DNA from: Escherichia coli
GTDB taxonomy: Bacteria; Pseudomonadota; Gammaproteobacteria; Enterobacterales; Enterobacteriaceae
Assembly: GCF_002854065.1 (NCBI RefSeq)
Contig: NZ_CP024148.1
Length of the DNA: 62,585 nt
Strand: one strand, 5' to 3'
In this document: positions 33,001 to 39,000 of the stretch, piece by piece
Layout: each line of letters starts with the position of its first letter
How positions within the stretch are numbered: position 1 is the first letter of the stretch
Made by a program: the position numbers

Positions 33001-36000
33001 CGCACCATTAAGGTATGTCCACGAACAGTACGCATGTACGCCAATGCTCAGATTTCGGGTGTTTTTCCCGATATTGTACGTACTGGTAGTGAAGTTCACT
33101 TTTGCCGTTGTCCAGATACCGGATTGGCACTGGCCTCCGTGCCAATCCGGTACGTGGAAAAAAATTGGCGCAGGTGATAGCCAAATTGTTACCGCTTCAG
33201 CTACTGCGTGGCGTTGGCCTGGAGCAACGGCAACATGTCCATCTGGCAAGAAAGTCATTGGTGGAGGCGGTCAATGCAGATCAAATACCGGATTTATATG
33301 GCTCACACGTTCCATGCCTTCAGGCAACAATGCATGGACTGCCAGTTGCGACACGACCGAAGATCAAAATGGTTCAATTACAGTTTACGCCATTTGCCAG
33401 TGACGATACTTATCACTGGCAAACCACGATGTAACTACATTTCCCCGACAGGTCAGTTCGGTGAGTACCGCCATAAAAGTTGTATTCGTCATAGAAGCCG
33501 CATTTCACAATTCGATTGGCATCATAGGTTGCAACTGACCCCGCAAAATAATTCGGCTTCCACCCGTGCGGATTTTCTGCATTACTGACACTCCAGGTAC
33601 ACTGGCTGGCAGAAAAACCAGATGGCAATGGGATCTGTTGTCCATTTGCTATTTTTCCTGTCAGAACAGTGCTACCTGATGCCCTTCTCCACGTACCGGA
33701 TTGGCACGGTGATATTGCATTTCGAAGCAAGAATCTCTACCTTCCCCCCTTTTTTGTCTGGAGGGGATATGTTTCAGAAAATCAAAATTCGCAAAATGAC
33801 AATCAGCCGGGCGCTGGACAAATACCTGAAGACAGTATCCATCCACAAAAAAGGCCATCTACAGGAGTTTTATCGCGTAAATGTGATTAAACGTCACCCT
33901 ATTGCTGAACGCTATATGGATGACATTACCACTGTTGATATTGCCAATTATCGGGATCAACGGTTGGCGCAAATTAACCCACGAACGGGGCGTCAAATAA
34001 CCGGAAACACCGTCCGTCTTGAACTTGCCCTGTTGTCATCATTATTCAATATCGCCCGTGTGGAATGGGGAACATGCCGCATGAATCCTGTCGAACTGGT
34101 CAGAAAACCCAAAATCAGTAGCGGGCGCGATCGTCGCCTGACTTCAGGAGAAGAACGCCGACTTTCGCGGTATTTCAAAGAAAAAAATCAGGCTCTTTAC
34201 GTCATTTTTCATCTGGCGCTGGAAACAGCAATGCGACAAGGTGAAATCTTGTCATTGCGTTGGGAACACGTCGATCTGCAACATGGGGTAGCTCATCTTC
34301 CAACAACCAAAAACGGTGCTCCACGCGATGTTCCGCTATCCAGGAAAGCCCGTAATTACCTGCAAATGCTGCCGACACAGCTTAACGGTAATATTTTTTC
34401 TTATACCTCTTCGGGATTCAAAAGTGCCTGGCGAACAGCACTTCAGGAACTGAAGATAGAAAACTTGCATTTTCATGACCTCCGTCATGAGGCTATCAGC
34501 CGATTTTTCGAACTTGGTACATTGAACGTCATTGAGGTTGCCGCTATTTCAGGCCATCGCTCCCTGAACATGTTGAAACGATACACACACCTTCGGGCTT
34601 ATCAACTTGTCAGTAAACTCGATGCCCGACGCAAGCAAACCAGCAAAATCGCTCCCTATTTTGTTCCCTACCCGGCAACGGTCGAGAACAGAAACGGGCA
34701 AGTCGTTGTGACTCTGAGTGATTTCGACCTGGAAACAAGCGCAGCCACAAAAGAACAGGCCATATTTCATGCCAGCGTGTTGCTGCTACGAACACTGGCA
34801 CAAGCCGCCCAGCGAGGAGAACGCGTCCCTACTCCTGGCGAACTTCCTACAAACATTGATGAACGGGTAATGATTTGTCCATTAACAAATTAGAGGATTC
34901 ACTTATGATAGAACAACTACAGAGTGATTTTTTATTCTGGATATTTATTTACTTCCTGATAGTAGGTTTGCTTATCAGAAACATTCATCTTACCAGAAAA
35001 ATTAAATCCATCGAAAAAAACAAAATGTTCCCAGCGGAGGAATATGCTGTCCTGGACATTGAACAGCATATGTCCAATAAATATATTGGGCGGCTAGTAA
35101 CCCGTTTTATGAAGAGAACTAATGGTGCACCTTTGTTAATTGTGTTTCCAGAATACGATAAAGGAGACAACAATGAAGACAAAAATTCTCCACCATTCCA
35201 ACTTGGAAAACTAACATCCAACATCAACAATATTAAAGAAATTTATTCCAATGATGACTTAAACTGTTTTCTGAATAATATTTCGGCACAAAAAAATTTA
35301 TATACAACGCACTCTGGACCTAGCCAGGCATGGATTGAACATGCATATCCTTTGCAACAAGTAACTATTCTCTTACAAGGCACTCGTCATAGTGAAAGGG
35401 AAGATATAATCAGTCAACTTGAGATTATTCTTTCCAGACTAAAAAATGGAGAAAATACAGGTTTTGAGCATGACGATGATTTTGGATATTCATTTCAGTA
35501 TGATGCCGCAGCAGTAGGAAAATCATCATTTTTCGATGAAGCGGCAGGAAGAAAATAAGAATAACGCTCTATCCATTGCACAGACAAATTAACGTTAATC
35601 TTTTATGAAAATCTTATTAACAATATTTATTTATCTGCTTACCGCTTTTCAGTCTGCAAATGCAGGTGGAATACCTTATACATTTAACCAGAAAATTCTT
35701 CAGGGGAAAGTTATTCGCGTTCTCGATGGCGACACCATAGAAATTAAAACACTACCCGCAAAAATTGTTGTGTATGAAGTTCCGATCCGAGTCCGATTGA
35801 TAAACATCGATGCCCCTGAAAAGAAACAACCTTTTGGACGCTGGTCAACTAGTCAGCTTAAAACTCTGGTTGCAGGTAAACAGGTGACAGTCTCTTATTC
35901 ACATAAAGACCGCTACGGACGCATTATCGGTCATGTGTTCACGACGAACGGCACGGATGCCAGCCGCTTTATGGTTCAGTCTGGCGCTGCATGGGTATAT

Positions 36001-39000
36001 GAACGTTACAACGTGGATGAGTCATTACCGGCTCTGCAACGGGAAGCGCAGGAACAAAAACGTGGTTTGTGGGCCGATGCAAATCCGGTTCCACCGTGGG
36101 AATGGCGTATCAGAAATTAAGGGGGCAAGAAAATGCATTCTTCTTTTGGTTTGCCATGATTCTGTCTTTTTATCTTTGTGCAATATTAAAGGCTTCTTTT
36201 TAACAGGGGGCGGCATGTATGTAATTAATCAACAGACAAGGGACAATAATATTCTTACGTTGCATGATGTTTTTAAAATCTATCAAAATACAGGGGGGCT
36301 TCGTCTTGTAAAAACAGAGGAGAATGAAAAGTACATCTCCATTATCATTTGTGGCGTTTTTCGTATTAGAAAAAACAAAAAGAATAACAAAATCACTTTG
36401 TGGGGATACAAGCTAAGAGATAAGCACACTGGGGTATGGACCAGAAGAAATTCATTTCCTGGTAAGATTTTTTTATTCTGGTCTAAAAAATCTGCATACG
36501 ACATGGACGACTGGTTAAAATATGCGATTAGCTACATCATCAAATCATTGATTGAGGCTGGATATTCAATTGAAGACAAACTCTATTTGTTACGCATTGG
36601 AGAGGAAGAGGAAAACAGTGAGAGTCGTTATATTTCCACACTATATCCATCCAATGTATATTACTCATATGAGTATGGAATACATGACATTGTTCATTGC
36701 CTTGGTAAAATAGCATCATTCAACTACCCCTATAATACACGATATATCAGCAGACATATTTTACTCGCAGAGATAAAAAACAAAATTTATCAGAGAGCAT
36801 TAAAAATTATAGGGGTGGATAATGAATTTAATGCTTCAAAAGCATTGAGTAAAGCTATATGGATAATGGTAGATAAAAAGATATTTGCACAATATGCCAG
36901 AGCTTCACATTGTTCGATAGCTTACAATTCAATTCGTCAGGCATTATTTGAGGACTATCTGGATTTTTCAAAGCGAATCCATATTGTGAATGATATGGAT
37001 TTTTTCGGATTGTGGCCTATGGTTGGTCGTCTAAGACAACAACATAAAAATGGTCAGTTTATACTATCTGGAAAGACAAAAGAGTTATATGAAAAAATCA
37101 GTTTTCCCTGCAAACTTAGTTATGGTGAGTTCAGAAGTTTACGACATGTTAGTTTGTCATTAGTATATGCTTTAAATGATAAACATGATAATGCATCATT
37201 CAGATTTACAGTCAGATTATTACGCCATCCACTTATCAAGAACTATCCTGTGAGAGCAATTTACTGGATTATCGATTATATTAGCATTCGAGCTTACTCA
37301 GAAAAAGAAAATGATATTTATCGTATATGCTCAAAATGGCTAGAATATCATCGTGATTTATTTAAAAACATTGGCTTTTATGACCGTAATACTGAATCCA
37401 GGCAAACATCACGCTGGGAAATGGAAACGAATCAGTTGTGTCATGCAATTGACTGGTTGTTAGCAGAAGAACGGTTAATTCATAAAAACCAGGAGTGGCC
37501 TTCTTTCTGGAGACTATCTGATGAATGGACGCGACAAGTGAAGAATAACGTTATTCCCGTAATCCCAAAATGGAAAGGAACTGGGATAAACTGGCAGAAA
37601 GTTGATAACGGTGTAAATGAATTAATTACATTTGATGCTCTGTGTCAGGAAGGTCAGGAGATGGAACATTGCGTTGCCAGTTATGCAGACTGGTGTGCAT
37701 CTGGAGAATATATTGCAATTTCAGTCCTGATGGATAATGAAAGAGCCACTCTTGGACTTTCACGAAAAGAACATGATTTAACCTATCAGTTTGACCAGAT
37801 GAGAGGTATTCGTAATCAGGCTGTTTCCAGAAACATGCTAATTAAAGGCAGGCATATTTTAAAAATAATCAACTCATCACTAAAAAGATAATGAGTCATC
37901 GCATCTCATTACAGCACCGATGACTGGGTGTTTATTCTTTCTGAATACAAAAACTGACTGAAAGATAAGGAAAGAAAGTTTTCTTACCTGTTTGTCTTAC
38001 GCAATGGTGAACTGGTTCACCATGAGGTCAACAAATCAGAGCTTCTTTGAGAGGTTTAACATGCAATATGCATTGCTTGATGGATTTGAACGAAAGTTTT
38101 TGCTGGATGCTCTTGAATTCGGTGTTCTGAAGGACTGGAAAGAAAATCCGGTAAAAGAACTTCCTGATATTGATGAATCTGCTCACCCCTTCCATGTCTG
38201 TTATGGTGGATATTTATTAAATCCTGGTGTTTCAGATTCAGATATTAGCAGAAAAATAAAAGACCAGACAGGATTCTGGCTGGCAGCTATTGATGATACC
38301 CGCATGGATTGTCATTCAATAGCTTATTATGATATTCACACACTCCCTCTGATTTCGTGTGGTCATCAAAAGATAGTTCCTTTTGCCGCGTTAATAAAAG
38401 CTGATGAATGCATCATTTCAAAAATTTCTTCGTATTCTGGTTTTGCCGTAACAGCCTTTTTGAGAATTAAAGACCAGGATATTGCAACTAATATACTTAA
38501 CCGTGAGGGGATTTTTGCTTTTAATGGCTGTGAACGCAGATTCAGACATCCAGTAAGTGAAGATAACTGGCAACAGGCAGTATCAGAAGAACGTGCTATC
38601 CGTTGTGCCAAAAGATTAATTCAATGTAAAGGATAACAAAATGAAACTTTTTATCGCAGAAAAACCCGCAGTAGCGAATGATATTGTTAAGGCGCTTGGT
38701 GGCAATTTTACCCGTCATGATGGCTGGTTTGAAAGTGATAATACTATTGTGACTAACTGTTTTGGTCATATTATCGAATCACAGCCCCCCGAAAACTATA
38801 ATCCTGAATACAAAGAGTGGAAGATTGAAACACTCCCTTTGCGTCTTTATCCCGTAAAATACCAGCCAGTAGAAAGCGCCGCAAAACAAGTTAAAACGAT
38901 TATTGAGCTTATCAGGCGTGCCGATGTGACCGAAATTATTCATGCTGGCGATCCAGATGACGAAGGACAGCTACTTGTCGATGAGGTCCTGGAATATGCA

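Follow-up and report, generated by a model that had tools for sequence, protein, structure and literature searches.

We analysed a 62,585-nucleotide stretch of Escherichia coli DNA (contig NZ_CP024148.1 of RefSeq assembly GCF_002854065.1; hereafter the window), which is an IncI2 plasmid with mcr-1, and focused on the four genes yebA, nuc (yeaA), ydjA and ydiA that occupy positions 34905-38636 between rci and topB. The interval consists of two unrelated units, yebA-nuc and ydjA-ydiA, the latter standing with topB and hha. On balance, we favour the view that it is ancestral IncI2 backbone and that ydjA-ydiA is part of a DNA topology and nucleoid cassette with topB-hha. The genes are already known, named and mutagenised, and finding them here is ordinary. 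The region is arranged as follows:

33769-34893, rci, which flanks the interval on one side
34905-35558, + strand, yebA, 217 amino acids (aa), open reading frame (ORF) and RefSeq coding sequence
35605-36120, + strand, yeaA/nuc, 171 aa, ORF, RefSeq 'thermonuclease family protein'
36215-37891, + strand, ydjA, 558 aa
38061-38636, + strand, ydiA, 191 aa, no recognised family
38641-40806, + strand, topB (ydgA), type IA DNA topoisomerase (topoisomerase III type) by RefSeq annotation, the downstream partner of ydiA and ydjA
40875-41081, + strand, hha, Hha/YmoA-family modulator of nucleoid-associated proteins by RefSeq annotation, the end gene of the module

The sequence-only reading had described four same-strand genes here, and all four ORFs were indeed present on the plus strand. 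The mechanical ORF of ydjA opens earlier, at 35933, but the homologues and RefSeq begin at MYVINQ; ydiA starts with MQYAL in every homologue. From rci through yebA, nuc, ydjA and ydiA to topB, the successive gaps are 11, 46, 94, 169 and 4 nucleotides (nt).

Conservation of the interval on IncI2 plasmids

For the block, plasmid records were counted at a query coverage of at least 80%, and the records with the IncI2 relaxase gene nikB served as reference. Matching records numbered 432 for the whole block, 500 for yebA and 472 for ydjA, compared with 523 records for IncI2 nikB, and the interval genes occur in ~83-96% of the nikB-positive records. Insertions of the insertion sequences (IS) IS1 or IS3 in or near ydjA, and variants such as the yebA-less plasmid pYUAHC37-MCR, account for at least part of the shortfall. 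About 3.9 kb around the interval was 100% identical to hundreds of ~60 kb conjugative plasmids from E. coli, Salmonella, Shigella and Klebsiella, which were typed as IncI2, MOBP and MPF_T and many of which carry mcr-1. The prototype plasmid R721 shows the same order (rci, yebA, (nuc), PcfJ gene, ydiA, topB, hha), with products that are 98-100% identical to those of the window. For TP114 the equivalence rests on a gene list that agrees in order and annotation (rci-yebA-yeaA-ydjA-ydiA-ydgA-hha). Nothing material distinguishes the window copy from R721 and TP114, and it represents the common mcr-1-era allele.

The genes of TP114 have been labelled and mutagenised previously (Neil et al. 2020, PMC7508951, Supplementary Data 1). 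There, yebA and ydjA are listed as unknown, yeaA as a pfam00565 endonuclease, ydiA as 'DNA topoisomerase III' by BLASTx and ydgA as topoisomerase IA, followed by hha. In Tn5 mutagenesis with about one insertion per 5 bp, in which maintenance and conjugation, both in vitro and in the mouse gut, were scored, with matings between E. coli Nissle strains, rci, yebA, yeaA, ydjA, ydiA, ydgA (topB) and hha were 'essential in no replicate' (PMC7508951). As the genes are conserved yet dispensable in these conditions, we regard them as backbone genes, neither cargo nor transfer genes. The description of the interval as cargo thus did not hold (block in 432 of 523 records, gene order of R721, genes of TP114). 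It had also been considered that all four might be conserved backbone genes with known transfer roles; conserved backbone they are, but a known transfer role was found for none of them.

Insertions of IS1A and of the IS3-family element ISEc36 were observed in or beside ydjA, and once in topB, in otherwise identical IncI2 plasmids (hits H1-H4, H31 and H233, e.g. NZ_MG210940.1, NZ_CP049356.1, NZ_KX034083.1 and NZ_CP021205.1), which agrees with the dispensability of ydjA and topB. In the PLSDB feature tables, IncI2 plasmids lack an entry for nuc (e.g. L001 6806-7321) despite its RefSeq annotation; this is incompleteness of the tables and does not mark a pseudogene.

The base composition of the interval was determined as well. 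Its GC content is 36.9%, against 42.7% for the whole window, which places it in the lowest 1.4% of windows of the same size, with only the nikA/oriT region lower. The genes had all been described as low in GC, which is correct for yebA (34.6%), ydjA (34.8%) and ydiA (38.0%) but not for nuc (44.4%). Low GC would suit a recently acquired AT-rich island that hitch-hikes on the plasmid as true cargo, and so would the exchangeability of ydiA-topB between IncI2 and IncX4. Positions 38051-40631 of the window are collinear with the IncX4 plasmid pBY63-4 at 87% nucleotide identity, beginning 10 nt upstream of ydiA. Within this segment, ydiA is 98-99% identical at the nucleotide level in 150-column bins (window 38151-38450), and its synonymous divergence (dS) between IncI2 and IncX4 is 0.06, compared with 0.84 for the adjoining topB, indicating recent exchange of ydiA by recombination between the two backbones. 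A DUF6012 gene in place of ydiA in another plasmid, and the class 'Accessory' that the TP114 authors gave to ydjA and ydiA in a small IncI2 comparison (PMC7508951), point the same way.

Nevertheless, a cargo island is very improbable and already largely refuted. Both the old prototype R721 and most nikB-positive records contain the block, other backbone stretches are equally AT-rich, and a repeat search gave just short AT-rich chance matches, with no flanking repeats or mobile-element boundaries. Selection over long distances also argues against it. In comparison with plasmid p14-95A, the ratio of non-synonymous to synonymous divergence (dN/dS) was 0.19 for ydjA and 0.16 for nuc (range for nuc 0.16-0.30), and topB gave 0.10-0.12. 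Judged by these ratios, ydjA, nuc and topB appear to be under purifying selection over longer distances, as expected of functional genes.

Linkage and protein families of YdjA and YdiA

The four genes had been read as one unit set apart from topB, whereas comparative evidence ties ydjA and ydiA to topB-hha instead. On IncX4 plasmids (L002, pBY63-4) the order is type IV coupling protein (T4CP)-Cag12-TrbM-ydiA-topB-hha-hns, and on IncX6 it is AAA ATPase-ydiA-topB-hha-hns. The window is therefore comparable to the IncX topB-hha-hns (sfx) module, in which ydiA-topB-hha is collinear in IncX4 and IncX6 and lies after the coupling-protein, Cag12 and TrbM genes. The two differ in that the IncI2 locus lacks an H-NS gene and contains ydjA (PcfJ) in addition, whereas IncX4 and IncX6 have no PcfJ gene at this locus. 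In the IncX literature that we searched, ydiA was unmentioned.

Genes of the PcfJ family, to which ydjA belongs by its C-terminal domain, were found near topB on further plasmids. A Proteus plasmid has TrbM-...-PcfJ-topB-hns and a Pseudomonas plasmid TrbM-PcfJ-topB-ssb. In Pantoea and Hafnia contigs PcfJ adjoins topB (PcfJ-topB-hns and topB-PcfJ, respectively), with hns or hha close by; a Yersinia plasmid has pil-ssb-topB-hns-x-PcfJ-ymoA, and the metagenomic plasmid contig L013 has T4CP-TrbM-x-topB-PcfJ-...-hha. Genes for Hha or H-NS thus stand beside topB or PcfJ in IncX4, IncX6, Proteus, Yersinia, Pantoea and Hafnia plasmids and in metagenomic plasmid contigs. Direct linkage of PcfJ with ydiA homologues was seen as well: in L046 (T4CP-TrbM-PcfJ, without topB) the PcfJ gene and a ydiA homologue share 16 nt, and in Vibrio plasmids a 5-kb stretch beside a relaxase gene contains genes for PcfJ, an ArdC-like zincin and a ydiA homologue, the first and last of these within 3 kb of each other. 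On p14-95A the order is pil-nuc-PcfJ-DUF6012-SNF2, the last gene encoding a giant SNF2-related protein. A full-length YdjA-type protein was found in ~13 independent lineages of Gammaproteobacteria; nine of them encode TopB within 10 kb, and in five it is immediately adjacent. The linkage of PcfJ and YdiA genes with topB is recurrent and suggestive, and it is correlative.

YdjA starts with an alpha/beta domain at its N-terminus, which a long helical region connects to the PcfJ domain at the C-terminus (~465-557). A PcfJ-like C-terminal region had been proposed for this 558-aa protein, and the Pfam search bore it out (PF14284, expect value (E) 5.9e-7, residues 457-536). Beyond this domain, YdjA had no match in Pfam, NCBIfam, PADLOC or PHROGs. 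The family comprises 215 representative clusters (E <= 1e-3) among 1.84 billion proteins, mostly of ~550 aa. Residues W75, W438, E479, H485, C486, T512 and Q528 are invariant in 65 sequences of the family, and the last five are equally invariant in 39 distant PcfJ-domain proteins, of which 38 match the PcfJ profile. The lone domain fusion that a Pfam scan revealed among these 39 proteins is with HIRAN, a domain with a DNA-binding role, in one protein. Between closer homologues of YdjA, residues 121-180 are the most variable. Resemblance to GNAT acetyltransferases is weak.

The founding PcfJ, from Enterococcus faecalis plasmid pCF10, has in common with YdjA the C-terminal ~90 residues, including the motif E-G-x-x-M/L-x-H-C-V...Q-x-R/Q-G-x-x-N (hhalign probability 85%, E 6.4e-6, 88 columns, C-terminal only), and both proteins are encoded on conjugative plasmids. 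In contrast, the N-terminal ~450 residues are unrelated and BLASTP finds nothing further; full-length orthology was rejected, since just these 88 columns align. The neighbours also differ, being AcrIIA9-family and PcfM genes in pCF10 and ydiA-topB-hha in the window. On pCF10 (L047 15874-19515, minus strand), pcfJ overlaps an upstream gene annotated as 'Cas9 inhibitor AcrIIA9 family protein', which sits in a run of small genes including DpnD/PcfM, and an ssb-x-thermonuclease trio lies elsewhere on the plasmid. A relation between the YdjA N-terminus and the pCF10 AcrIIA9-family protein was tried and rejected, as there was no homology. A literature search on the function of PcfJ returned nothing useful.

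YdiA had been called an unrecognised protein of 191 aa, and it found no match in Pfam, NCBIfam, PADLOC or PHROGs. NCBI and UniProt records widely call it 'DNA topoisomerase III' (window 38061-38636, homologues P0037-P0074), but it has no topoisomerase domain, and the name appears to have been copied from the neighbouring topB. Several candidate relatives were rejected: DUF6012 (BLASTP E 0.22, hhalign probability 0.06%), a 189-aa neighbour in Yersinia and a 182-aa protein of pCF10 (no relation to either), and a pseudouridine synthase-like fold (no significant structural match to the TruB/Pus10 catalytic domain). For both YdjA and YdiA, confident structure models were obtained that gave no informative structural or defence-system match, and sequence and profile searches against solved structures were without a match.

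Directly upstream of topB, in the slot of ydiA, the 39-kb E. coli plasmid CP101957.1 (L010 6444-7031) has a DUF6012 gene, and so do L003 (8793-9383) and L017 (322-957). The topB of CP101957.1 is 92% identical to that of the window over the matched part, with 85% nucleotide identity over the whole gene, and remnants of the IncI2 intergenic sequences around ydjA are still present. As YdiA and DUF6012 are without detectable homology, this looks like a non-homologous gene replacement in a fixed slot.

The yebA-nuc unit

In YebA, hydropathy analysis revealed a single segment of strong hydrophobicity, at the N-terminus (19-residue Kyte-Doolittle mean 2.24), with a basic stretch behind it. The earlier description of the first protein as membrane-anchored is supported by this segment and its flanking basic charge, and from the positive-inside rule YebA is predicted to have one N-terminal transmembrane helix with an N-out/C-in orientation and its bulk in the cytoplasm. 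No match was found in Pfam, NCBIfam, PADLOC or PHROGs. Its C-terminal ~75 aa are 55-65% identical to proteins of Burkholderia, Ralstonia, Cupriavidus and Variovorax; this domain also stands alone, as a 79-aa protein of plasmid pYKCT010 and on betaproteobacterial plasmids. For the middle part, a partial relative is encoded on a Proteus plasmid, just before its PcfJ gene. By these partial matches, YebA is a mosaic. The divergent IncI2 plasmid pYUAHC37-MCR (L048, NZ_CP126512.1) is without yebA, and its rci is directly followed by a 180-aa nuc gene.

Nuc had been taken for a staphylococcal nuclease (SNase)-family thermonuclease with a signal peptide, and the sequence supported both parts of this. 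The SNase domain is complete (PF00565, E 7e-26, residues 62-158, model positions 1-107 of 107), phmmer matched S. aureus nuclease chains with E 3e-8, and the N-terminus is signal-peptide-like by inspection (MKILLTIFIYLLTAFQSANA/GG, with a hydrophobic core and ending in SANA/GG). It had also been asked whether the nuclease might lack its catalytic residues. Alignment to the S. aureus nuclease showed that the Ca2+ ligands and catalytic residues are kept (S. aureus numbering first: D21=D43, D40=D69, R35=R64, E43=E72, R87=R105), with Y85 corresponding to Y103. The ligand T41 is replaced by A70, a change that is expected to be tolerated because this ligand is a backbone carbonyl. Based on its sequence, Nuc is most likely a Sec-exported, Ca2+-dependent non-specific nuclease that cuts DNA or RNA in the periplasm or extracellularly. 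Together, the unit would provide a membrane-anchored YebA and an exported SNase-type Nuc that acts in the periplasm or outside the cell.

Homologues of Nuc were found in at least 5000 plasmid records, most of them without the other three genes nearby. Its closest known counterparts are the SNase-type nucleases ('thermonuclease family protein', nuc) of IncX, IncI1 and IncF plasmids. Nuc is 77-87% identical to nucleases on plasmid records of 34-54 kb, the size of which suggests IncX, and ~58-60% identical to those on larger plasmids. It scored 43 bits against the NCBIfam EcnA model (cut-off 180) and 41 bits against NucI (cut-off 250), and as it falls under both curated cut-offs it is an equivalog of neither. 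We take R64 Nuc and ParB of RP4/RK2 to be SNase homologues, and Nuc of pKM101 to be a periplasmic nuclease of a different, phospholipase D (PLD) fold. Literature searches on plasmid nuc genes and on 'EcnA' returned nothing useful. The nuc gene is a common accessory of enterobacterial conjugative plasmids that is unneeded for transfer.

A system built on the nuclease and its neighbours, which would defend the host cell against phage or exclude foreign DNA as it enters, could draw on the predicted export of Nuc, on its intact catalytic residues and on its partial match with PADLOC candidate model C3a212 (SNc+LTD, E 2.2e-11). This match, however, is limited to the generic SNase domain, and YebA, YdjA and YdiA match nothing in PADLOC. 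Such SNase genes are found on their own, lacking these neighbours, across many plasmid groups (at least 5000 plasmids); ydjA and ydiA keep the company of topB/hha and not of nuc; and a non-specific periplasmic nuclease has no obvious discrimination between self and non-self. A defence system of this kind is thus improbable and, like the cargo island, poorly supported.

Possible roles of YdjA and YdiA

Together, ydjA, ydiA, topB and hha would make up a modular cassette for plasmid DNA topology and the nucleoid, which in many MOBP/MPF_T plasmids follows the transfer genes at their distal end. Within it, YdjA and YdiA could be accessory factors that work on plasmid DNA, with or parallel to the plasmid topoisomerase III. 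Their candidate tasks would be to ease topological stress, to unlink replication or transfer intermediates, or to help the plasmid settle under silencing by H-NS/Hha. Such roles might bring a fitness gain in some hosts and be dispensable in E. coli matings.

With moderate-to-low confidence, we infer accessory roles for YdjA and YdiA beside topoisomerase III and Hha/H-NS silencing, the activities and the link with TopB being read from sequence and gene order. We base this on position, since the place behind T4CP/TrbM or pil genes is conserved, on how tightly ydiA is coupled to topB (4 nt) and PcfJ genes to ydiA homologues, and on the ssb genes nearby together with the one HIRAN fusion. Recently, it was hypothesised that plasmid topB offsets the topological stress induced by H-NS/Hha (bioRxiv 10.1101/2024.07.10.602937), which fits these accessory roles.

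Several observations weigh against placing ydjA and ydiA in a topology cassette. With at least 5000 records, TopB is frequent on plasmids, so that some adjacency is expected by chance; homologues of PcfJ and YdiA are also found without TopB; and a tblastn search with the TopB of the window found no TopB near PcfJ-domain genes outside Gammaproteobacteria. Promoter and terminator scans of the interval DNA were not above shuffled expectation and thus lend no support to co-transcription. A role in the processing of transfer DNA cannot be essential, since the TP114 mutants had no defect, and for YebA, YdjA and YdiA no biochemical or genetic phenotype exists. Finally, ydjA of the window gave a dN/dS of 0.77 against the IncI2 allele of L048, compared with 0.10 for topB, and residues 126-342 (window 36590-37240) account for 39 of the 46 amino-acid changes; from these two alleles alone, recombination, relaxed selection and diversifying selection are inseparable. 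This clustered pattern fits a conflict or interface protein equally as well as a housekeeping partner.

The main rival to a topology cassette is that YdjA and/or YdiA are establishment or anti-defence proteins, which shield the incoming plasmid DNA from restriction, CRISPR or other defences of the recipient. They could possibly be carried into the recipient by the type IV secretion system, and the nuclease might attack competing DNA. The raised and clustered dN/dS in the middle of YdjA would be explained in this way, and dispensability in E. coli Nissle matings is expected if the function matters only against particular recipient defences. Relatives stand beside genes with a known or suspected role in anti-defence, namely the ArdC-like zincin gene in Vibrio, the gene for the SNF2-related protein on p14-95A and SprT-like genes in L013 and L016; the AcrIIA9-family and DpnD/PcfM genes are directly upstream of pcfJ on pCF10; and the genes are AT-rich. 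However, there was no match to defence or anti-defence profiles and no homology of the YdjA N-terminus to the AcrIIA9-family protein, and the genes lie on the relaxase side of oriT, beyond nikB and outside the leading region. In the usual MOBP polarity, relaxase-side genes are transferred last, and the interval would therefore be the last to enter the recipient. We consider an establishment or anti-defence role unlikely, though worth keeping in mind. The features on this side of the plasmid are:

42669-44294, - strand, mcr-1
45715-50366, - strand, nikB-nikA (nikB 45715-50028, nikA 50025-50366)

A related reading sees YdjA and YdiA as a hitherto unrecognised pair of DNA-processing or anti-defence factors of conjugative elements, which we regard as doubtful. 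The two may then be partners or regulators of the plasmid topoisomerase III, or effectors that protect or remodel transferred DNA, and a metal or catalytic site would be built from the E-H-C-C/Q residues that are invariant in the PcfJ domain. On this reading, the PcfJ and YdiA families would span mobile elements of both Gram-negative and Gram-positive bacteria.

The window additionally contains ISApl1, a type IV pilus operon and the shufflon with rci. The pap2, mcr-1 and ISApl1 cassette at 41848-45404, between hha (with a 146-aa membrane ORF) and nikB, is the true acquired cargo in this part of the plasmid. The only Rfam match in the window was the sok antitoxin RNA (98.4 bits) at 60998-61169 on the minus strand, representing a hok/sok post-segregational killing locus; the Rfam search of the interval itself (34905-38636) was without a match.

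Colistin resistance by mcr-1 is carried mainly by IncI2 and IncX4 plasmids, and the backbone status of the interval guards against over-reading it as a defence island. The 'DNA topoisomerase III' misannotation of the 191-aa YdiA is worth correcting. What remains of interest is the recurrent PcfJ-YdiA-TopB-Hha linkage and the two confidently folded families, YdjA and YdiA. As the families of plasmid topoisomerase III, PcfJ and YdiA are widespread on conjugative plasmids, their linkage provides a testable handle on topB modules.

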